Positions 25,633 through 41,318 of a stretch of DNA of 64,000 bases are shown in pieces. The DNA is taken from NCBI GenBank assembly GCA_963804995.1, contig CAWDSK010000003.1, positions 480,001 to 544,000 on the forward strand. Reading direction: 5' to 3'. The stretch comes from an uncultured Acidobacteriota bacterium. GTDB taxonomy: Bacteria; Acidobacteriota; Terriglobia; UBA7540. A program made the position numbers and the translations under genes. Each line of letters begins with the position of its first letter. The first letter of the stretch is position 1. The notes under the pieces are model-generated. The model saw only the letters and a program-made list of their open reading frames with translations. It did no database searches and had not been told where the DNA came from.

Positions 25633-25692
25633 AGGGGACGGATTTCGGAAGCAAGTGTAGCGTGGACCTCTGCGGTGGTGGGGCAAGTTGAC

Positions 25693-25765
25693 GTAGCGGC
25701 GGGTTTACCCCGCCACCCTGCCCGCGATCGCGTGGCATGAAATGGCGGGGTAAACCCGCCGCTAC
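25693..25765. repeat. REP doublet (REPIN), copy 1
   Basis: GTAGCGGCGGGTTTACCCCGCC...GGCGGGGTAAACCCGCCGCTAC, 73 bp. Confidence 0.85.
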
Positions 25766-25889
25766 GAATCGGGCAGGATCAACTCGCCGTTGGGGCAAAC
25801 AGACCTGACAGGCAAACAGACCTGAACTTGCTACACGCGAGGATTTCCCGTATCCTGAGGGCGTAGGGAGTGGAAACGGAGAACCAGCG

Positions 25890-26156
25890 ATGCAGTTAAA
25901 CGTCCCACCGGACCTTGAGACGCTCATCAAAAAGCGCCTTTCCAGCGGCGGCTATACGAGCGCTGAAGACGTAGTCCGCCGCGCCCTGGAGGCGCAGGAC
26001 GCCGAAGAAAGCTGGACCGACGAGGAACGCCGGGCACTCGCCGCTCATATCGAGGAAGGCTATCTCCAGGCCGAGCGTGGCGAGCTTATGGACGGCGCCG
26101 AGGCTCGCCGGGAAATTCAGGCGATGAAAGACAACTGGCGTTTGTCCAAACGATGA
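25890..26156 (+). CDS. ParD-like RHH antitoxin
   Basis: SGGY.S..DVVR.AL motif; ATGA overlap with downstream toxin. Confidence 0.8.
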   Translation: MQLNVPPDLETLIKKRLSSGGYTSAEDVVRRALEAQDAEESWTDEERRALAAHIEEGYLQAERGELMDGAEARREIQAMKDNWRLSKR

Positions 26157-26464
26157 GCGTCTATGCTCTCACGCCTCTTGCCAAAACGGATATTTTTGAT
26201 ATCTGGTGTTACCTTGCCGATGCCAGCGAAGACGCCGCCGAGCGCGTAGAGCACGCCATTTACGACGCTTGCGCGTTCCTCGCCGAAGCGCCCCGGCGCG
26301 GCCATTCCCGTCCCGACCTCACATCCCGTCCGCTACGCTTCTGGACGCTGACGCGTTATCCCAATTACACCGTTGTGTACCGGCCAGAGACGGCCCCCCT
26401 TCAGGTCGTCGCCGTTCTCCACGGGAAAAGAAACATACAACGCATCCTGAAACAGCGCCCGTGA
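26153..26464 (+). CDS. RelE/ParE family toxin
   Basis: LTP.A..D..DIW.Y, P..G..R.DL, VVAVLHG.R. Confidence 0.88.
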   Translation: MSVYALTPLAKTDIFDIWCYLADASEDAAERVEHAIYDACAFLAEAPRRGHSRPDLTSRPLRFWTLTRYPNYTVVYRPETAPLQVVAVLHGKRNIQRILKQRP

Positions 26465-26479
26465 CGAGGCCAATTTGAT

Positions 26480-26552
26480 GTAGCGGCGAGTTTACCTCGC
26501 CACCCGGCCCACGATCGCGTGGCATAAAATGGCGGGGTAAACCCGCCGCTAC
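26480..26552. repeat. REP doublet (REPIN), copy 2
   Basis: Near-identical 73-bp direct repeat of 25693-25765. Confidence 0.85.
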
Positions 26553-27322
26553 GCTTGCTGTCCGTCCCGAACCCCGAAGCCCCCATCCCCTGCCGTGACA
26601 CACTCCACCACTTCGGTTATCGGTCGGTGGGCATACGAACATGAGCTTAAAGTCGGCTCGAAGTTTGAAAATCACAAAATCACTCAATGACTCGATGATC
26701 CGATGACTGAATGGCCCGATCACCCGATTGCCAGACCTCGCCGTGACACACTTCCCCGTATCGGTTATCGGTAGGATCGACGCCAAGGATGAGGCAAATG
26801 AGCGGCCCGTCACAAACGACTTGACCCCTCACCCGCCTGCGGGGCGTGCGCTACTCGTAGGGGCACCTCTCGTGGGTGCCCTGATGTCGGCTACGCCGAC
26901 GGGGAGGGCAGGCACGAGGCCCATAAGCGCTTAGATAAGGACGAATAACTTCCGAGTACACCGTCACTCGCTCGGAATATTTAATGGTCCATGGTCTCGG
27001 TGATAAACACTAAGCGACTTATGGGGAGAAATACGGAGAAACGGCAGCAACCGTTAGCCGATGAACCACTTGAAGCATCATTGGTGGTGGGAACTTGTGC
27101 CAGCCCAGTTCGCGGTGTTCATGCCGCTGCTAACCTGGTATTTCAACTCGCGACGAAATCACATCCTCAGGCACATGTAGCACTGCGGCAGGAAGTTCAT
27201 GCAGCGCAGGAGGTCCCGCAAGCGCGAGTCGGGGCGTAGCAGGTCCGCCGCGAAGCCGTCCAGGCGAAAGCTGATGGATGAACGCCGGCCCGTCACTCGC
27301 AACTTGTCACTCGTCACTGCTC

Positions 27323-30300
27323 TCAGAAGTTCTCCAGCAACCACACATTGGCTTCTCTGGTACTGCCCATCAGAGCCAGATGGCGACCGTCGGGAGAAAA
27401 AGAGGCGCCATAACGCATCTCCGCACCGCCGATGAAACCTTCTTTCTCGAGGACGTAAGGGGTACCTTTCAAATCCACATAACTGATCTCTCCGTGCCAC
27501 CCTGATACAACCAGACCCTTGCCGTCTGGCGCCCAGAACAACTGCCAGAAGGTCTCCCGATATTTGACACTAACCTCCTGGGCCGCCCCGCCAGCCAACG
27601 GCAGGATTTGGATTCGGCGCTCGCGCTCCTCATTCTGGTTAAATGCGAGGCGCATGCCATCGCTGGAAAGGTCCCAGACATGATACGCGTCCGGAGGGTT
27701 GAGATTAACCCTGGCAAGCTCCTGCCTCCTCGGTTCTTGCGACGGCTCGAACGCCGAGAAGATGATTTGTTTTCGGTCCGGACTCTCCTCGCTGAAGACG
27801 CACAAAGTCGCAGGGGCCCGGGCGCAGGCCAGGCCGTCGATACCCCGTCCCTCCAGCACTAGCTGCGGTGGTCCGCCCGAGGCGGGCACTCGCATGATGC
27901 GTACCGGGGTGGGGGGATTGACCTCAGCCGTTGCACTGGACAAGTATAGAATCCAGGAACCATCCGGGCTCACGACAGGGTTGTCCTTGAAGTCAGGACC
28001 TGTCGTTACCAGTTCGGCCGCCTCCTGGTCTAACGCCTGTTTAAAGATGTCCGTAGTGCCGTTCCGATCAGACCAGAATAGGACGGTTTTATTGTCCGGC
28101 ATCCACCCGCCCGGATAAGCATTGTGCTCATCCAGTGTCAGGCGGCGCGGCTCCTTCAAACCGTGGCCACCGGCTTCCAGTTCCCCGACGTAGACACTCG
28201 CCGGCGAGCTGTATTTCGTAACGGCCAACTGCTTTCCATCTTGCGTCCCGTTAACAACGTCTATATTGACCCCGGTCCATTCCGTGAGTTGTCTTGGTTT
28301 GCTCACAGGTTGACCGGTCCTGGTGTCAACCCTGATTTCCCAGAGATTGCTGTCGTCCTGATGCGGCGGCGCTTCTAACATTGTATAGATGAAGCGACCG
28401 CCGGGGTACCACAGAAATTGGATGCCCTGATTACATAACCTCGGGTCGGACACGATGAGAGTCGGCTGACCTCCCTTCAGGTCGCGACTCTCGATAGAAC
28501 ATACGAACGTGTCCGGCGTGCGGTGAAATCTTTCGTAGGCGATCCTCTGCCCGGTTGGCGACCACGCTGCCCAATAGAAGCCGTCATCCTCAGAACCGGA
28601 TAAAAACCTGCGTGGTTCCTCCCCTTGTGGTCCCATCAGCCAGATCTCGCAGTAGATTGCAGAAGGACCTTGACATACACCGGTTCCGAGCGCAATCAGG
28701 GTGCCGTCCGGGGAGACGGCCCAGAGGCCGGCGTCATCTCGAAACTTGCGAGGAGGTCCACCCATGGCTGAAGCAACCCAGCCGCTCCGGGGGACGGTTC
28801 CGTAGCTGGTGGCAAAGAACTTGGTACTATCAGGGAACCACCCAAGCGGGAAAAAGCCAGCGCGGTCAGGGGCCGGCCCTTCGGGTTGAGGAATGGTGCG
28901 CGTCTCCCCAGTTTGAATCAGCTTCAGGTGCATTCCCATTCGGTCGCCATAGGCGAGGTACTTCCCGTCGGGCGAAATAACACCACTTGTTACAGGGTTT
29001 TCGCTGGGATTGAAGGTGAGTCTGCGTTCCTTGAGTTGGGGCGGGGGACGCGTGAGCCAGTAGGCGAGAACCGCGCCGCCGATGACGACAGCACCGGCCA
29101 GGGCGATGGCCAGCCGGCGACGGTTCTGTAGCGGCGGTGTCCCCACCGCCGCGTGGCGATCAGAGATCGCCGCTACAGCCCGCCCCGAGTCCGTATCGCG
29201 TTTCAAGCGCTGGAGGTCGGCGCGCAAATCGGAGGCGTGCTGGTAACGAATGTCTCGATCCTTCTCCAGCGCCTTGTTGATGATCTCTTCAAGTTTGGGG
29301 GGCAGGCTGGGATTCAGGCTGACGGGAGAGACCGGCGCTTGGCTCAGAATGGCATTGAAGACGACCGCCGAGGTGTTGCCCGCGAACGGCTGCCTCCCCG
29401 TCGCCATCTCATAGAGCACCGCGCCGAAGCTGAACAGGTCGGTTCGCGCGTCGACCTCTTCGCCGCGCGCCTGCTCAGGCGACATGTAGGCGGCCGTGCC
29501 TACCGCCCCGCCCAGACTGGTCAGCGACTCCTCCGCCGCGGTGGGTAGCGCCGGCCTGTGGCCGCCACCCGGAGCCGCCGAGGACGGCAGCGCTAGTTTC
29601 GCCAGGCCGAAGTCGAGAACCTTGGCTTGACCTCGCGGGGTGACGAAGATATTCGCCGGCTTGATGTCGCGGTGAATGATGCCCTTGCCATGTGCCGCCT
29701 CGAGCCCTGCCGTAATCTGGATGGCGAGGTCGAGCAACGTGTCCAATTGTAGCGGCGGTCTCTGACCGCCGATTCGTCGATCGGAGATCGACGCTACAGC
29801 GAGCCGCTCCTTCAGCGTTTCCCCCTCCAGCAGTTCCATGGCGATGAACGGCTGGCCCTCGAACTCGTCGATGTCATGAATGGTGCAGATGTTGGGATGG
29901 TTCAGGGCGCTGGCGGCACGGGCTTCACGCTGGAAACGAGCGAGTGCTTGCCGGTCCTTCGCCAATTCCGCGGGCAGAAACTTCAGCGCGACCGTCCGGC
30001 CCAGCCGCGTGTCCTCCGCTCTATAGATCACCCCCATCGCGCCACGCCCCAGCATCCCGGTGACCCGGTAGTGCGAGACTTCCTTGCCCAGCAGGCTATC
30101 AGACCCCGTCAGATCAGGGGGGATCGACTCGGCCACGGGCTCCTCCACCGCAGCCACCGCCGGCTGAGGGGAGCCTGCGGGGTTTACCTCCTCCCATTCC
30201 ACGGGGACCAGCAGACGGTAGCCGCGGCGGGCTACCGTCTCCACGTATTTCGGCTCCTCCGCTGTGTCACCCAGCGCGTCCCGTAACCTCTTGATGGCGG

Positions 30301-30526
30301 CGTTGATGCTGTGGTCGAACTCCACGATGGTGTCATTCGGCCAGAGTTTTTTCTGCAGCTCCTCGCGCGTCACCACCTCGCTAGGACGCTCCACCAGCAT
30401 TTGGAGAATCCGGAAGGGTTGTTCCTGAAGGCGCAGTTTGCGCCCCTCTTTGTGCAGTTCCCCGGCTTTAAGGTCCAACTTGAAGGGCCCCAGACGGACC
30501 ACGTGAGAGCGCCGCGCCGCTTGCAT
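27323..30526 (-). CDS. CadC/OmpR-type winged-helix + Hanks-type Ser/Thr kinase + TM + PD40 beta-propeller protein
   Basis: LQEQPF...IETVARRGYR-like wHTH; LGRGAMG, VALK, HRDIKPAN, DFG, YMSPEQ; SPDG repeats. Confidence 0.92.
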   Translation of the reverse strand: MQAARRSHVVRLGPFKLDLKAGELHKEGRKLRLQEQPFRILQMLVERPSEVVTREELQKKLWPNDTIVEFDHSINAAIKRLRDALGDTAEEPKYVETVARRGYRLLVPVEWEEVNPAGSPQPAVAAVEEPVAESIPPDLTGSDSLLGKEVSHYRVTGMLGRGAMGVIYRAEDTRLGRTVALKFLPAELAKDRQALARFQREARAASALNHPNICTIHDIDEFEGQPFIAMELLEGETLKERLAVASISDRRIGGQRPPLQLDTLLDLAIQITAGLEAAHGKGIIHRDIKPANIFVTPRGQAKVLDFGLAKLALPSSAAPGGGHRPALPTAAEESLTSLGGAVGTAAYMSPEQARGEEVDARTDLFSFGAVLYEMATGRQPFAGNTSAVVFNAILSQAPVSPVSLNPSLPPKLEEIINKALEKDRDIRYQHASDLRADLQRLKRDTDSGRAVAAISDRHAAVGTPPLQNRRRLAIALAGAVVIGGAVLAYWLTRPPPQLKERRLTFNPSENPVTSGVISPDGKYLAYGDRMGMHLKLIQTGETRTIPQPEGPAPDRAGFFPLGWFPDSTKFFATSYGTVPRSGWVASAMGGPPRKFRDDAGLWAVSPDGTLIALGTGVCQGPSAIYCEIWLMGPQGEEPRRFLSGSEDDGFYWAAWSPTGQRIAYERFHRTPDTFVCSIESRDLKGGQPTLIVSDPRLCNQGIQFLWYPGGRFIYTMLEAPPHQDDSNLWEIRVDTRTGQPVSKPRQLTEWTGVNIDVVNGTQDGKQLAVTKYSSPASVYVGELEAGGHGLKEPRRLTLDEHNAYPGGWMPDNKTVLFWSDRNGTTDIFKQALDQEAAELVTTGPDFKDNPVVSPDGSWILYLSSATAEVNPPTPVRIMRVPASGGPPQLVLEGRGIDGLACARAPATLCVFSEESPDRKQIIFSAFEPSQEPRRQELARVNLNPPDAYHVWDLSSDGMRLAFNQNEERERRIQILPLAGGAAQEVSVKYRETFWQLFWAPDGKGLVVSGWHGEISYVDLKGTPYVLEKEGFIGGAEMRYGASFSPDGRHLALMGSTREANVWLLENF

Positions 30527-30837
30527 GGGAACTCCTATGGCTTGATGGGGCCGACATTACCACTCCGTTATCGGCAATTCAAGGTGCCACCGGCGTAATT
30601 CTGGCGTTCGAGCACCGGAGCGAACCCTCCATACCCCCAGATTCAGGGGCTTGCGGAACCCTTTCACGGATGCCGCATTGGCCCTGCACCGCTTCTAAGA
30701 CATCGGCAAGTACCATTCCTACCAATCCGTTAGCTCGTCGCCCACATGTAATCCACGCGTAAGCGCTGTTGCATTGAGGTACCCGCTCGCCCAGCCCAAA
30801 GTCGCCCTCACCACGCAAGTTCGTGGAGGAGGGCGCC

Positions 30838-31578
30838 ATGGGATCGAAAGGCAAGACTCAGAAGGTAGCGCGATGGAAATCGTGGATTCTGGTGGGATGG
30901 ATGGCGGTTCTGGGAGTTCCGGGGCTGCTGGCTCGAACTGTAGCCCAGGCCCCGGACGGCGGCCCGGAATCTCAGGGCCAGCCCGCGGGCAATGGCGAAT
31001 CCGGCCTGCGGATTACCCTGCGCATCTTCAACTACGCTCACGTCACGCCCCCCGAACTGACCCGGGCGGAGCACGTGGCAGCAGCTATCTTCCGCAAGGC
31101 AGGAATCGAAACGATGTGGATGGATTGCCCGGTCTCACCGGAGGAGGTTGACCGCTTCCCCGCCTGCCAGCGGCCCTGGGCGACCTCGGACTTTGCCCTT
31201 CGCTTCGTATCCCAGCCCTTTGGGGAGAGACCCGGCTCCCACCACGACCTGGGGTGGGCTCTCCCTTGCGTGGACAGCCAACAAGGATGCTATACCTATG
31301 TCTTCTACCAACTGGCGAGGCAGTGGGCAGAGCGTTGTGACACTACGACCGATCAGATCCTCGGCCACGCCATAGCGCATGAAGTCGGGCACCTGCTATT
31401 GGGACCGGAGTCGCACTCGCAGACCGGCGTCATGCGCGGAGATTGGTCGATGGATGACTTAGCAGCAATGGCACGGACGTTTCTCTACTTCACCCCAACG
31501 CAATGCGAACGGCTCCAGAGGGACGTGTCAGCGAGGATGCGGGATCATGCGGGCGCGCTGGCAAGCCGAGGACTATGA
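30838..31578 (+). CDS. Secreted hypothetical protein with HExxH motif (putative zincin-like)
   Basis: Signal peptide; AIAHEVGHLLLG..SH...G.M. Confidence 0.7.
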   Translation: MGSKGKTQKVARWKSWILVGWMAVLGVPGLLARTVAQAPDGGPESQGQPAGNGESGLRITLRIFNYAHVTPPELTRAEHVAAAIFRKAGIETMWMDCPVSPEEVDRFPACQRPWATSDFALRFVSQPFGERPGSHHDLGWALPCVDSQQGCYTYVFYQLARQWAERCDTTTDQILGHAIAHEVGHLLLGPESHSQTGVMRGDWSMDDLAAMARTFLYFTPTQCERLQRDVSARMRDHAGALASRGL

Positions 31579-33506
31579 AGCCCCCCTGAGTACCTTCAAG
31601 TTTACCGCCGAGTAGACTGAGCAGATGCGCGCCAAGGTGAGGGAACGCGGGCGACAGCAGGCGGCAGAGGCCCCCAGTCTAACCGTATATTCACACAGTT
31701 CGCCGGGGTTAGCTCCCTTGTAACGCCATAGTGTAGAGCGAAGTCGCCCAACTCCTGTATCGTCGGCCACTCGGAAGTTATCCTCGACGAATCGAAATCC
31801 TCTATTCGATAACGAACGTCGCCCATGGAACCCCAACAGCCTATCTTAGCGCTTATGGGCACGAGGCCTGCCCCTACGAGACACGTTTTTGCGGCCGCTC
31901 CGCGCCGCCCCGCCGTGACACACTCCAACAGCAGTGACGAGTGGCTAGTGGCGAGAAAAGGCTGGCGGCGCCGCCGGCCAATCCAAAGTCGGAAATCGAA
32001 AATCGGTCTTCCAATCTAAAATCCAAAATTGCCGCCCCGTCGTGACACTCCCCCGCATCGGTTATCGGCAGATTGCGACGCGAACTTGAACCTAACTCGA
32101 CGGCTCGAAAACCCACAATCACACCATCATTAAATTGTCCGCTCACCCAATGATTCAATGTCCCGATGAATCAATGACCCAATCCGCGCTGTGACACTTC
32201 CCTGTATCGGCTATCGGTGGGATTAACGCCGAGGATGAGACAAATTGAGCGGCCCGCGACAAACGACTTGACCCCTCACCCGTCCCGCCCCGGCTCGTAA
32301 AAACGCCGGCGGCGGTCCACCCTCTCCCCTCGGAGAGGGCTATGCTCTTTCACTCTGGTGGTGGTGAAACGGAGAATTAATGACCCGATGGCCGGACCGC
32401 CCGATCACCCGATTGCCAGACCTCGCCGTGACACTCCCCCGCATCGGTTATCGGTGGGATCGGCGCCGAGGATGAGGCAATTTGAGCGGCGCGTTGGGCG
32501 ACGGGGTGGTTATCCTCTCCGCCGCGTGGCTTGACGCCACTCTCAGCACCACCCAATTTGTTTTGTCAGCACCGCACCTGCATTCCCCGGTTCAGCACCA
32601 CCCCGGCGCTCGGCCCCGATGATCAATTTGGAAAAAACGCGCTATCGGGGCTCGGCGCGCCTCCCCTCCTCATCTGAGGCGGGGAGTTCTTTAAAGCTCC
32701 CCTCCTGATTCCTGTGGCGCCGAAGGCGACGGGGTGGTTACGCGAGCGCCTGGGGCGACAGAGTCGTTACCCGCGGCGAAGCTTTCTTCCGCGGGCGGTA
32801 ACGCCCCCCTTCCCGTTCGTGGCGAGAAATAAGGACTGGCGCCATACTGACCTCACCGCCGCCGTGACACACTTCCCCGTATCGGTTATCGGTAGGATCG
32901 ACGCCAAGGATGAGGCAAATGAGCGGCCCGTCACAAACGACTTGACCCCTCACCCGTCCCGCCCCGGCTCGTAAAAACGCCGGCGGCGGTCCACCCTCTC
33001 CCCTCGGAGAGGGCTATGATTTTTGGCCTTGTACTGATGAACCAATAGCCTCGTCCCCCCGCCCCCGCCGTGACACACTTCCCCACATCGGTTATCGGTC
33101 GGTTGGCACACGAACCTTAGCCTAAAATCGACTTCGCAAATCACAAATCTGCCGGGCCGCCACGCCAATCCAAAATCGGAAATCGAAAATCTAAAATTGC
33201 TTGCCCCCGCTGTGCCACACTCCCCCGCATCGGTTATCGGCAGGCTTATCACCGAACATGAGCCCCATTCGGCACGCCGGAAAATCGCCGACCGCCCAAT
33301 CACCAATCACAAATCGCAAATGACCCAATGATCCGATGGCCCGATCTCCGATTTCCCTCCCCCTTGCCAACCTTCTCCCGGGTACAGCTCAACGCCCATA
33401 GTATAATGATGGGTTTGAATTTCGACGGCGAGGGTGGCTCCTTCGGTGGTCCCAACAAAAAGAGAGAGGGCCAAAGCTCACTTCGTCGCCGCGCCTAAAT
33501 AATAAT

Positions 33507-35304
33507 ATGAGATTCTCTCGCCGCAACTTTCTCGGATCTTCGACCGTCGCCCTGGGTTCAGGCATCCTGGATTTCCTCACCACTCCGCTCTGGAGATGGC
33601 CGGGCGCTCCCCTTCTCCACGCGGCCACCGCGCCCGACCCCGACGCGTCCTCCCCCGTCACCTACGTGGATGTGGCCAAGGAAGCTGGCCTCAATGTGGA
33701 GAACGTCTGGGGGGGAGTGAAGCGCAAGAAGTACATTGTCGAAGCCAAGGGAAGTGGGGTGGCGTTCTTCGATTACGACCAGGACGGCTGGCTCAACGTC
33801 TACCTGACCAACGGCATTCGGATGCCGGGCGAAGAGCCCAATCCCGGCGGGCAGACTCCCACCCAGCATCTTTTCAAGAACAACCGCGACGGCACCTTTA
33901 CCGACGTCACGGAAAAAGCCGGCTTGACGCGCACCGGGTGGGGCACCGGCGTGGGCGTGGGCGACTACGATAATGACGGCTGGGACGATCTGTTTTGCTG
34001 CTACTGGGGGCACAACGTCCTATGGCACAACAACGGCGACGGCACCTTTACGGACGTCACCAAACAGGCCGGCCTGTGGGAGGAGCGCGTACGGTGGGGT
34101 ACCGGCTGCACCTGGCTGGATTATGATCGCGACGGGTACCTTGACCTCTTCGTCTGTAATTACATCGAGCTCAACATTCAAAAAGTTCCTACGCCCGGAC
34201 AGACCGGCTATTGCCAGTGGAAAGGAATCCCAGTGATGTGTGGTCCCCGCGGCTTGCCCGCCGGGATGAATATCCTCTACCACAATAACGGCAACGGGAC
34301 GTTCACGGACGTCTCGAAAAAGGCCGGCATCCTCAAGCCCGGCCCCCGCTACTCGATTACCGCCGTCTCCTACGATTTCGATAACGACGGCTGGCCCGAC
34401 ATCTACGTGGCCATCGATTCCGAACCGAGCATTCTCTTCCATAACAAGCACGACGGAACGTTTGAGGATATCGCCGTCATGGCCGGCTGCGCTTACAACG
34501 AGGACGGTCAGGAACAGGCCGGCATGGGCGTGGGCGTGGGAGATTACGACTGCGACGGGTGGCTCGAACATCTACAAAACCAATTTCTCTGACGATACGC
34601 CGGACCTCTATCACAACAACGGCGACGGCACGTTCACCGACGTGACCTTTGCCGCCGGCTTGGGCGTGAATACGCAATACGTGTGCTGGGGCGCCGGATT
34701 CATTGACTACGACAACGACGGGTGGAAGGACATTTTTCAGGTCAATGGTCACGTCTACCCCGAAATCGAGGAGTACCACCTGGACGTGCTGTTCCGAGCC
34801 CAACGCCTGGTCTATCGGAACCTCGGCAATGGGAAGTTCAAGGATGTTTCGAAAGATATGGGCCCCGGAGTGATGGAGAAATTTTCCAGCCGCGGCTGCG
34901 CCTTCGGCGACTACGATAACGATGGCGACATGGACGTGCTGGTCTTGAACATGAATGATTTCCCCTCGCTCCTGCGCAATGATGGGGGCAACAAACTGAA
35001 TTGGATCAGCCTCAAGTTGCTCGGGACAAAGTGCAACCGCACGGCCATCGGGGCGCGCGTGCGCGTTGTGACGGGAAAACACGCGCAGATCGACGAGGTG
35101 CACTCGGGAGGCAGCGTCATGTCGCAGAGCGATTTGCGGCTGCACTTTGGTCTGGGTCAGGCCACCCAGGCGGACGTGATCGAGGTGAAGTGGCCCACCA
35201 CCCAAAAGGTGGAGCGCTTCACCAATATCCCGGCCAATCACTTCCTAACGATTAAAGAAGGAGCAGGAATTATTAAGACAGAAAGTCCGCCAGCGAGCGT
35301 TTAG
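33507..35304 (+). pseudogene. CRTAC1/ASPIC-UnbV FG-GAP repeat protein, frameshift near 34568 (possibly artefact)
   Basis: Tat signal RRNFL; DYDNDG repeats in two overlapping frames; removing one A from CTCGAACATC gives WLDIYKTNFSDD. Confidence 0.85.
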
Positions 35305-38877: not shown

Positions 38878-39213
38878 TTGCCTGACGATCTCAAGGATTC
38901 CATTCTTTCGATATTCGAGGCCTCACTGGATGCCCAGTTGCGGGCGGTTCGCCGTCTCCGCGGCGGTTCCCCAGCCCCCGCCCCGAGGCCGCGCCGCACA
39001 GGTCTGTCCCAAGTGGACATGGCGTACGACATACTCAAGAAGGCCCGTACCCCCTTGCACATTTCCGAACTCCTGGCGCGCCTCCGCGCCGCCTTCTACG
39101 TCACCGTCGATCGCGAGAGCCTGGTCTCTTCGCTGACCAAAAAAGTCGCCCGCGGCGATCGCTTCCTGCGTACCGGGAAGAACACTTTCGGCTTACGTCC
39201 GGAGGCCCGATGA
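38878..39213 (+). CDS. IS-associated winged-HTH protein (HARE-HTH-like)
   Basis: AYDILKKA..PLHISEL...F.RTGKNTFGL; GGAGG RBS; ATGA overlap with transposase. Confidence 0.7.
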   Translation: MPDDLKDSILSIFEASLDAQLRAVRRLRGGSPAPAPRPRRTGLSQVDMAYDILKKARTPLHISELLARLRAAFYVTVDRESLVSSLTKKVARGDRFLRTGKNTFGLRPEAR

Positions 39214-40589
39214 CTCTGTTCGCCGCCTGGTCGGAGATCGTGGCGGACTGGGCCCCCACTTTTCCCCAGCAGCGCACCCTGCAGCGCGCCGTGCGCCAGG
39301 CCCTGGGCGCCTTGGTCTGCGTGGGTCGACGCTGTCTTTCGCGTATCCTCTGGACCCAGGGCCGCCAGCAGCGCAGTTGGTCGAGCGAATACTTTCTCCA
39401 CTCGCGTTGTCACTGGGAACCGCAGACGTTGTTTGCCGGCGTCTGGCGCCGCGCCTTGCCCTATTGTCCCGGCCGCCTGGTGGGCGTGGCCGTCGACGAC
39501 ACCCGCCTGCGCAAGACCGGCCGCGCCATTCCCCAGGCGCGTTATCACCGCGATCCCCTCTCGCCCCCCTTTCATGTCAACCTCCTGCGCGGCGTGCGCT
39601 TTCTGCAAGCTTCCCTGCTGCTGCCCCTGCATCGGTACGCCCCCGCCAGCTGCCGCGCTCTGCCCGTGCGCTTTGAAGAGGCGGCGCCGCTGAAAAAGCC
39701 CTCCCGCAAGGCGAAAGAGGAAGCCTGGCAGGAATATAAAAGGATGCGCAAGCTCCACAACCTCTCGCAGCGTTTTGTGCAGAGCGTGGCCCCCTTGCGC
39801 CAGGCGCTGGATGCGGCCGGGGGTGGGGCCAAGCTGCTGGTGCTGGCTCTGGATGGCAGCTTCTGCAACCGCACCTGTCTGCGCGCCCCCCGCGATCGCA
39901 CCGAGTTGATCGCCCGCGCCCGCAAGGATGCGCGCCTCGGCTTTCGCGCTCCCCAGCCTTCTCGCCGCTTTTACGCCCTCTCCACCTTTACCCCCGAACA
40001 GGTCCGGCAGGACGAGTCCCACCTCTGGCAGCAAACCAAGCTCTTCTACGGAGGCAAGCGCCGCCGCCTCCGTTATAAAGAGGTGTCGCAAGTCTACTGG
40101 CGTCGGGGCGCCGGCCAGATCCCCCTGCGGCTCTTCGTCGTGGCTCCTACCCCCTATCGCAAACGGAAGAGCTCCAGACTCTACTACCGTCAACCGGCCT
40201 ACCTGCTGACCACCGACCTGCGGCACTCTGCCCCTCAGTTGCTGCAAATCTACTTCGACCGCTGGCAGATCGAAGTCAACCACCGCGACGAGAAGGAGAC
40301 GCTGGGTGTCGGACAAGCCCAGTTATGGAACGTTAACGCCGTGCCCAAGCAACCTGCCCTGGTCGTGGCCGCCTACAGCGCGCTGCTCCTGGCTTCTCTC
40401 CAAGCCTTCGGCACCGAGCGTGGCACGGCCTATCAGGCTCTGCCCCGGTGGCGACGCAAGGCCCACCGCCCTTCCTGCCTCGACCTCGTCACCCTGCTGC
40501 GCCAAGAAATGGTCGACCACCCGGAATGTCCCCAATCTCTGGGCTTCCAACTCACCGACCGCGCCCTCACCCACGCCGCTGATGCATAA
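39210..40589 (+). CDS. DDE transposase (IS701/IS4 superfamily)
   Basis: VAVDDT.LRK.G, LALDGSF, Y..RWQIE..HRD.K (YREK). Confidence 0.88.
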   Translation: MTLFAAWSEIVADWAPTFPQQRTLQRAVRQALGALVCVGRRCLSRILWTQGRQQRSWSSEYFLHSRCHWEPQTLFAGVWRRALPYCPGRLVGVAVDDTRLRKTGRAIPQARYHRDPLSPPFHVNLLRGVRFLQASLLLPLHRYAPASCRALPVRFEEAAPLKKPSRKAKEEAWQEYKRMRKLHNLSQRFVQSVAPLRQALDAAGGGAKLLVLALDGSFCNRTCLRAPRDRTELIARARKDARLGFRAPQPSRRFYALSTFTPEQVRQDESHLWQQTKLFYGGKRRRLRYKEVSQVYWRRGAGQIPLRLFVVAPTPYRKRKSSRLYYRQPAYLLTTDLRHSAPQLLQIYFDRWQIEVNHRDEKETLGVGQAQLWNVNAVPKQPALVVAAYSALLLASLQAFGTERGTAYQALPRWRRKAHRPSCLDLVTLLRQEMVDHPECPQSLGFQLTDRALTHAADA

Positions 40590-41194: not shown

Positions 41195-41318
41195 CTCCAC
41201 GATGTTATTGAAAACAAATGGTGGAAAAATATCACTTTCGAGGCTCTCCACGATGTTATTGAAAAAACAGGAGTTATAGTCGTCTCTCCACTATGTTTAT
41301 GAAAAGAAAAGGGGTTAT
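41195..41318 (+). repeat. Three spaced copies of CTCCACGATGTTATTGAAAA motif
   Basis: Copies near 41195, 41246 and 41287 in an AT-rich stretch. Confidence 0.8.

Follow-up and report, generated by a model that had tools for sequence, protein, structure and literature searches.

A co-oriented repeat with a predicted sigma-28 promoter core, dispersed through the genomes of an uncultured acidobacterial genus

What is served by an array of promoter-like repeats that all face noncoding DNA? The question is raised by a 64,000-nucleotide stretch from an uncultured soil bacterium of the Acidobacteriota (the window; positions 480,001 to 544,000 of contig CAWDSK010000003.1, assembly GCA_963804995.1), in which repeat units resembling sigma-28 promoters follow one another on the minus strand. 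We found that the unit is a genus-specific dispersed repeat and not a single-locus array. We tentatively read it as a self-propagating repeat, with a core of about 45 bases that would consist of a sigma-28 (FliA/WhiG-type) promoter and the first 10 to 16 transcribed bases.

The array and its copies across the genus

The initial annotation had placed nine copies in the array, at the spacings that we also find, and had described an invariant distance between -35 and -10 boxes around a variable 12-base spacer. Both statements hold: eight units are complete and follow the spacing exactly, and the ninth copy is a leader without promoter. Each complete unit reads as a -35 octamer starting with TCA or TAA, exactly 12 variable bases, RCCGATAR, and, after seven further bases, a G-rich leader. 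In the eight units, listed below in window coordinates together with the half unit, CCGATAA has its first C at 26623, 26771, 32068, 32217, 32454, 32892, 33098, and 33240.

26593..26644, minus strand: unit 1 (most downstream); -35 TCATGTTC at 26644-26637, -10 at 26624-26617, predicted +1 at 26609
26741..26792, minus strand: unit 2; -35 TCATCCTT at 26792-26785, -10 at 26772-26765, predicted +1 at 26757
31908..31926, minus strand: half unit, leader only; heptamer repeats stand where the promoter would be
32040..32089, minus strand: unit 3; -35 TCAAGTTC at 32089-32082, -10 at 32069-32062, predicted +1 at 32054
32189..32238, minus strand: unit 4; -35 TCATCCTC at 32238-32231, -10 at 32218-32211, predicted +1 at 32203 (A)
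32426..32475, minus strand: unit 5; -35 TCATCCTC at 32475-32468, -10 at 32455-32448, predicted +1 at 32440; leader 2 nt shorter
32862..32913, minus strand: unit 6; -35 TCATCCTT at 32913-32906, -10 at 32893-32886, predicted +1 at 32878
33068..33119, minus strand: unit 7; -35 TAAGGTTC at 33119-33112, -10 at 33099-33092, predicted +1 at 33084
33210..33261, minus strand: unit 8 (most upstream); -35 TCATGTTC at 33261-33254, -10 at 33241-33234, predicted +1 at 33226; G-rich leader

Units 6 and 2 are identical over 97 bp. In agreement with the annotated lack of a credible open reading frame (ORF), no coding signal was detected in any of the six frames (ratios of nonsynonymous to synonymous changes, pN/pS, of 0.72 to 1.23), a coding repeat was rejected, and no sigma-70 promoters were found in the array region. 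The host sequence starts again at about 33360, next to a divergent gene's conserved TATAAT box, and no target duplication was seen at that boundary. An assembly artifact, considered in the initial annotation, is unlikely because contigs of two public DNA runs match parts of the mosaic exactly, over 219 and 249 bases, and because unit arrays occur in many other assemblies. The two runs could be the source sample, and none of their contigs spans the array. No RNA data set was listed as containing 31600-33600.

A matrix of the -10 box and leader detected 185 copies in 76 clusters of the genome and none in the reversed genome, which excludes chance. With variants included, there are 198 copies in 81 clusters, the present array being one of them. 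Spacings from unit to unit range from 105 to 943 bp genome-wide, and none of the 51 multi-copy clusters is of mixed orientation. One variant keeps the promoter spacing with a different, shorter leader, in five near-identical copies (G000:C1:157634, C2:527042, C3:1583208, C6:1467327, and C6:1401418).

We then searched relatives for the unit. The strict pattern was matched in 17 of 24 genomes of the genus and in none of 16 others. A looser pattern was matched in 18 of 19 genus genomes, in 3 of 97 genomes from other genera of the family (1 to 2 hits each), and in none of 4 from another family; the counts of 97 and, below, 116 family genomes include seven flagged as unpublished, on which the conclusions do not depend. 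The unit was not found in 300 other Acidobacteriota genomes, and a phage origin was rejected, with no match in viral contigs. A genome collection gave at least 80 matches, and all of the matches listed were titled Acidobacteriota or Terriglobia. Copy number varies among relatives from 1 or 2 up to about 200 per genome. Positions are lineage specific: the site orthologous to that of the present array, upstream of an FG-GAP gene, has no unit in 14 of 14 relatives. In relatives, the promoters are separated by other bodies, with recent expansion into near-identical tandem arrays of 95 to 97 bp or 170 to 180 bp. As for genes co-occurring with the unit, which the annotation had also suggested looking for, no protein family recurred at more than four places among 373 genes within 3 kb of clusters.

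Promoter anatomy, sigma factors, and constraint

The -35 box was assessed in the 185 copies selected on the -10 box and leader alone. In 173 of them, TCA preceded the -10 core by exactly 21 bases; it stood at a neighboring offset in 4 and was absent from 8, and the spacer had 136 versions; in relatives, it occupied the same offset in 105 of 118 dereplicated units. Conversely, the -10 core, with the consensus RCCGAT(A/T)A, was intact in 172 of 178 copies chosen without using the -10 region. At bacterial initiators, a pyrimidine at -1 as a rule precedes a purine at +1. In a Pseudomonas aeruginosa structure paper, GCCGATAA occupies positions -15 to -8 of a sigma-28 promoter (PMC12784957), which makes the first G of the G-run the predicted +1 and a changeable pyrimidine the predicted -1. 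The predicted +1 position is G in 96 to 99% of copies. The predicted -1 base is often changed, yet it becomes C or T in 36 of 41 changes along near-neighbor edges, compared with 124 transitions among 207 spacer changes.

FliA-like factors, which the annotation had suggested checking for, are present. Besides a flagellar FliA, the genome encodes another FliA/WhiG-like factor on the chromosome and two more in mobile-looking regions, with very similar recognition helices; two match the TIGR02479 profile above its cut-off and two just below. The presence of FliA is uninformative about a link with the unit, since nearly all genus genomes (23 of 24) have a FliA-type match. Outside repeats, TCA occurred at the units' offset in 14 of 193 sense sites versus 2 of 143 antisense sites, with 1 to 3 at off-register offsets. 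Host genes with the units' promoter spacing include an HDOD gene beside motor genes, a hemerythrin gene, and two hybrid kinase genes, in addition to some likely chance hits; those of flagellin, CheA, and a PAS-GGDEF protein have a one-base-shorter form.

Some observations on these factors stand apart from the unit. The two genes in mobile-looking regions lie in segments resembling integrative elements (G000:C4:208274-214448 and C6:1-9556), which look like mobile elements carrying their own sigma-28 factor. The orphan FliA/WhiG-like factor (G000:C9:162900-164116) has a syntenic position within the genus; before it come a conserved motif resembling a sigma-54 promoter and a conserved 5' leader, about 170 bases long, that may be structured. 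A link of the unit to this orphan was rejected: its homologues occur in 104 of 116 family genomes and are not genus specific, and units lie nearby in only 3 of 13 relatives.

The boxes are under constraint. Copy-specific changes affect 77 of 1,069 spacer sites (7.2%) and 59 of 908 upstream sites, as against 3 of 462 in the -35 box (0.65%), 3 of 851 in the -10 box (0.35%), 6 of 652 in CCGA (0.9%), 12 of 638 in GGGG (1.9%), and 5 of 669 in AGTG (0.75%), four copies with shifted spacing having been excluded beforehand. Compared with the spacer, four of the five boxes thus have changes 8 to 20 times less often, and substitution rates between near neighbors concur. The -35 box was never used to select copies. 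Outside the promoter boxes, CGA(T) recurs as a conserved block seven bases after its first occurrence, and conservation across the genus takes in the first 10 bases of the predicted transcript. The boxes, their fixed spacing, the initiator position, the constraint on copies, and the matching host regulon all support the annotated sigma-28 likeness, and the units are probably working promoters, with sigma-28 RNA polymerase binding there and initiating on the leading G of the G-run.

Bodies, polarity, and neighboring elements

Between the promoters lie mosaic bodies. They are made of same-strand ramps of 7- and 8-base repeats (strand counts of 30:3, 43:2, and 32:5 upstream of first units) and of pieces of families resembling repetitive extragenic palindromic (REP) sequences; G-rich heptamer repeats are already known (PMC4692102). 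Similar tandem-repeat tracts are found at 31980-32006, 32145-32183, and 33167-33197, and the main features are as follows.

26668..26728, minus strand: 7/8-base tandem-repeat ramp between units 2 and 1
32262..32345, strand not assigned: palindromic REP-like repeat, its family giving about 360 BLAST hits in the genome; another copy lies at about 32936-33017
32590..32750, strand not assigned: mosaic of further REP-like families in the 436-bp body, with 50 to 140 BLAST hits each
33298..33349, minus strand: 7-/8-base tandem-repeat ramp upstream of unit 8

Blocks common to different loci end within tandem repeats, REPs, or the core, with no fixed end point, and no terminal inverted repeats or inverted arms were found around the units. 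With these scattered block ends and no duplication at the host boundary, a miniature transposable element with inverted repeats (MITE) of the Correia or RUP type was rejected. So was membership in the REP sequences or bacterial interspersed mosaic elements (BIMEs): the core is not palindromic, the mean folding z was -0.16 over 118 units, and REPs are filler. As the annotation had concluded, the array is not a cluster of short, regularly interspaced palindromic repeats (CRISPR) or a guide array, given its variable spacings, bodies that are multi-copy genomic repeats, and no shared adjacent effector (looked for near clusters only; no search for cas genes was made in the rest of the genome).

The bodies give little sign of a structured RNA. 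Those of this genome fold like shuffles (mean z of -0.13, 63 bodies), and in relatives the minimal units of 93 to 104 bp have somewhat better folds than their shuffles (mean z of -1.3, 23 units). In 18 such minimal units, none of 10 predicted pairs had compensatory changes; a weak pairing of the 5' G-run with pyrimidines before the next -35 box showed no covariation. Rfam gave seven weak matches, all far below gathering scores, and with the 10 pairs lacking compensation a structured small RNA (sRNA) family was rejected. The 11-base leader occurs 11 times outside units, versus about 12 expected by chance from a hand estimate, and no above-chance complementary target was found; no 5' end of an ARAGORN-called tRNA or transfer-messenger RNA (tmRNA) matches it by eye. 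A Csr/Rsm sponge was rejected, as CsrA (PF02599) was not found in this 92% complete genome and GGA is lost in 9 to 17% of copies (T at the fifth transcribed base). Terminator-like sites did not exceed shuffles. G-richness is marked: 61 of 185 copies have four G3 runs among their initial 60 predicted bases, compared with 1% of 3,000 intergenic controls, and a loose G-quadruplex (G4) motif is predicted in 154 of 185, compared with 12.6% of controls. Elsewhere in the genome, we noted an array of 26 closely spaced tRNA genes (G000:C5:1304904-1309125).

The clusters are polar with respect to genes. The nearest gene lies a median of 236 bp upstream versus 954 bp downstream, with 62 of 75 clusters polar this way, and relatives have the same polarity in 28 of 36 clusters. 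The next downstream gene is in sense for 39 clusters and in antisense for 36; this near equality indicates that the units do not serve genes, and the distance, the lack of sense bias, and the lack of coding signal led us to reject an expression repeat of the REP2 or IR-A type. Genes downstream of clusters have lower codon scores and lower GC content at third codon positions (GC3). A cluster is present in 23 of 55 gaps longer than 2 kb and in 1 of 2,087 gaps shorter than 300 bp. Repeat content is 0.14 to 0.28 over the 4 kb downstream and 0.02 to 0.07 upstream beyond 250 bp, against 0.065 for the genome, so that the units face repeat-rich islets; the REP words tested were not enriched near units. 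A replication signal resembling the FtsK orienting polar sequences (KOPS) was rejected, as only 29 of 40 clusters are on the inferred leading strand (genes, 56%), or 50 of 76 by G/C skew.

In 22 of 81 clusters, an array of AT-rich sites follows downstream on the same strand, with one case on the opposite strand and one upstream, against 37 and 36 of 568 control gaps; in relatives, 10 of 37 clusters have it downstream. In 42 of 48 metagenome loci and 18 of 23 genus loci, this array forms the 3' tail of a gene for a helical protein. Units facing that tail were seen at 3 of 9 loci of this genome, at 6 of 48 metagenome loci (two nearly identical), and at none of the 23 top genus loci; none of 44 helical-protein genes has units on its 5' side. 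The module of gene and AT array is absent next to the present array, and two AT-array sites at 41216-41267 of the window have no unit nearby.

The helical protein is of interest in itself. It belongs to a multi-copy all-helical family of about 350 to 400 amino acids (aa) (e.g., G000:C6:1401950-1403101 and C4:37243-38394), with 13,147 representatives at E<=0.001 in a profile search; a first metagenome scan with one protein found nothing. Its genes nearly always end in an array of two to four similar AT-rich sites, the first of which often encodes the last residues of the protein, and the 8 to 11 bases before each site are identical within a locus and different between loci, so that gene and array may form a gene-plus-array system. 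The protein has no Pfam, NCBIfam, or convincing PHROG family and no solved relative, and its fold gave only generic helical-bundle matches (best Z of 10, 107 aligned residues). As a mobilizer of the unit it was rejected, no nuclease or recombinase fold being among the matches, an absence that does not exclude the function. Sigma-28 boxes are not in excess upstream of its genes (8 sense versus 6 antisense in 71).

The array is interrupted by an insert of 4.9 kb, which had been annotated as such and is indeed a real bounded segment, as judged from its inverted ends and from the occurrence of the same end motif around other cargo in the genome. The insert and the neighboring genes comprise the following.

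25890..26464, plus strand: ParD-like antitoxin/ParE toxin pair, antisense to and downstream of the array
26906..26937, plus strand: left inverted end of the insert, with a REP-like hairpin (26854-26917) placed outside it
27323..30526, minus strand: cargo gene of 1067 aa, winged helix (Trans_reg_C), Ser/Thr kinase, and PD40 propeller
30838..31578, plus strand: cargo ORF of 246 aa, without Pfam family and with no NCBIfam family near cut-off
31842..31873, minus strand: right inverted end of the insert
33507..34592, plus strand: divergent host gene (FG-GAP repeats) adjoining the array

Inverted pairs of the end motif enclose cargo of about 60 bp, 1.3 kb, and 4.9 kb, with further pairs at G000:C1:22327-23664, C2:726794-726885, and C5:128438-128530; it is possibly a REP-dimer-like carrier. 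The noncoding flanks of the kinase cassette are common to three paralogous cassettes, and cassettes of this type of about 4.9 kb, with homologous flanks, are found at 27004-31790 of the window and at G000:C3:339735-344637, C5:230234-235143, and C6:1898779-1903393. Three of five members of this winged-helix/kinase/propeller family lie less than 1 kb from a unit cluster, versus 10% of genes within 5 kb. The ParD/ParE pair stands between two direct copies of a GTAG-type REP doublet (25681-25766 and 26468-26553), and the whole (25681-26553) resembles a small REP-bounded cassette. The FG-GAP gene, which encodes about 600 aa in relatives, is split here at about 34590 into frames of 361 and 280 aa, by a frameshift or an assembly error. 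The window also contains a DDE transposase gene with a small upstream helix-turn-helix gene (38878-40589).

Competing explanations and known systems

A self-propagating repeat, our tentative choice, would be the simplest explanation for the combination of a fast turnover of positions with a lasting constraint on promoter and leader, if transcription gets the unit copied. After initiation by sigma-28 RNA polymerase, the G-rich nascent RNA would form an R-loop or G-quadruplex, opening the DNA and provoking recombination, which is the weak step of the scheme. Repair against other copies, by way of the flanking tandem repeats and REP pieces, would then yield tandem duplications, shuffled bodies, and new loci, and more mobile DNA would collect downstream of the units. 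Only copies with a working promoter and leader would keep leaving descendants, their RNAs being by-products. In its boldest form, which we consider somewhat unlikely, this would be a selfish element reduced to a promoter of about 45 bases, with no enzyme, inverted ends, or hairpin of its own, that recruits the motility sigma factor, copies itself through a G-rich RNA-DNA hybrid, and founds polarized islets collecting mobile DNA.

Several points weigh against self-propagation. Transcription, R-loops, and recombination at the units are proposed steps that we infer from sequence, and no mobilizing enzyme was identified. The CCGA and AGTG blocks are conserved beyond the needs of sigma-28, and R-loops do not account for their exact letters; in relatives, G-richness past the first 25 bases is weaker. 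The -35 box of the units is TCAT, and its 16-base gap is one base longer than at the flagellin gene of this genome. Shuffled old spacer alleles and conversion of the core can both inflate the measured constraint. As for polarity, gene positions came from our own simple gene caller, several of the 36 repeat words used as controls show it too, mostly over shorter distances, and selection against promoters facing nearby host genes would give part of the effect. Finally, if the repeat were purely selfish, decayed copies should be more numerous than the roughly seven leader-only relics and five copies with damaged -10 boxes that we counted, a scarcity that favors selection by the host.

Such selection might act on a noncoding output, either short RNAs that share their 5' end or transcripts running antisense into the accessory islets, damping toxin-antitoxin pairs, transposases, or the helical-protein gene when sigma-28 is active. 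It would fit the constraint on nearly every copy, the genus-conserved first 10 transcribed bases, the AT-rich arrays downstream on the same strand together with the constant orientation of units toward the 3' ends of nearby helical-protein genes, and the slightly better folding of minimal units in relatives; sigma-28-dependent sRNAs exist in Escherichia coli (PMC10578931). We nevertheless regard it as unlikely. The initial annotation had proposed a special array of sRNAs or guides, of which the predicted promoters and the common leader stand, but the unit is dispersed genome-wide, its bodies are mosaics not conserved between species that fold like shuffles in this genome, and we found no compensatory change, leader target, CsrA, Rfam match near a gathering score, or excess of terminators. 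Positions differ between species, downstream genes show no preferred sense, and the helical-gene link is missing from the top genus loci and from the present locus. Alternatively, as the annotation had also suggested, the copies could act as a sink that titrates FliA or its paralogues and sets the threshold of the motility switch. About 200 units compare with 28 candidate gene promoters, their boxes and spacing are constrained whatever their position, and two of the four sigma-28-like factors are in mobile-looking regions. A sink is improbable all the same, as copy number ranges from 1 or 2 to about 200 among relatives that nearly all have a FliA-type factor, and strict co-orientation, islet polarity, and a conserved transcribed leader are not needed for it.

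The core might also not be mainly a promoter, its sigma-28 likeness being secondary. It would then be a binding or recombination site for another protein, for instance, the end of a composite mobile module of unit, repeats, AT-rich array, and helical-protein gene. The conserved blocks beyond the promoter boxes, including the second CGA(T), the position of clusters at one edge of variable islets, their fixed orientation toward the AT array and its gene, and fourteen matches to Y1 transposases (RAYT/IS200 type) in the genome are consistent with this view. We give it little credence, because a free spacer of fixed length and a C or T before the G are what a promoter predicts, and there are no terminal inverted repeats, target duplication, or fixed ends, no palindrome in the core, no enrichment of the tested REP words, and no family or nuclease or recombinase fold for the helical protein.

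About 200 intact copies serve no gene and mark one edge of the variable islets of the genome. If they fire, the motility switch would turn on hundreds of noncoding starts, with titration of sigma-28, antisense transcription into accessory DNA, or recombination as the outcome, each a regulatory or evolutionary mechanism for which we found no description in the literature searched; if the promoter-only selfish element is real, genome plasticity would be tied to the motile phase of the cell. The unit is a genus-specific marker and provides an initial outline of the sigma-28 regulon for a group of uncultured acidobacteria, and its 45-base core would be cheap to assay with purified or heterologous sigma-28.

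We compared the unit with known systems; the literature searched, which left most subscription papers outside, contained no published description of the repeat. Sigma-28 (FliA/SigD/WhiG) promoters share the -10 GCCGATAA, a -35 box, and a +1 eight bases after the last A (PMC12784957), but those described are single copy and tied, like the known sRNAs, to motility genes or their untranslated regions (PMC12784957, PMC10578931), and an amplified repeat of this kind was not found in that literature. The comparison with integrons shows units that are neither palindromic nor alternating with ORFs; no search was aimed at an integrase. Like the BIME/REP mosaics and pneumococcal BOX elements, the unit builds intergenic mosaics of modules that vary in number and are reiterated in tandem together with flanking DNA, and it has a modest leading-strand bias (PMC3733652, PMC3049150), but their modules are defined by stem-loops, whereas its core is nonpalindromic and promoter shaped and REP pieces are only variable filler.

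In the garP/G4 system of Neisseria, a promoter and a G-rich R-loop start pilin gene conversion (PMC13463697); on our best reading, the unit would by analogy follow the same path from promoter to G-rich noncoding RNA to an R-loop or G4 that starts recombination. That system is one host-selected site on pilE with silent donors, whereas the unit has about 200 sites, no target gene seen, and a proposed R-loop. The Correia element, a Neisseria MITE, is likewise an abundant small repeat with an outward promoter able to transcribe downstream noncoding DNA (PMC3184786), but it has terminal inverted repeats, whereas the unit lacks inverted ends, target duplication, and fixed length, and the promoter is its only conserved part. 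Neisseria REP2 and Borrelia IR-A are, like the unit, dispersed, promoter bearing, and without terminal inverted repeats (PMC3184786); REP2 has a promoter, ribosome-binding site, and ATG, directly before genes, in 14 to 23 copies (PMC3184786). The unit differs in its alternative-sigma promoter, its lack of a reading frame, its orientation toward noncoding DNA, its tandem arrays, and its roughly 200 copies. By its sequence, the unit is a kind of promoter-bearing interspersed repeat without the inverted ends, hairpin core, or gene behind the promoter that define Correia, REP2, IR-A, BIME, and BOX elements. In known promoter-bearing repeats, the promoter is either carried by a MITE or there to serve a gene, whereas here an alternative-sigma promoter appears to be the conserved unit itself.

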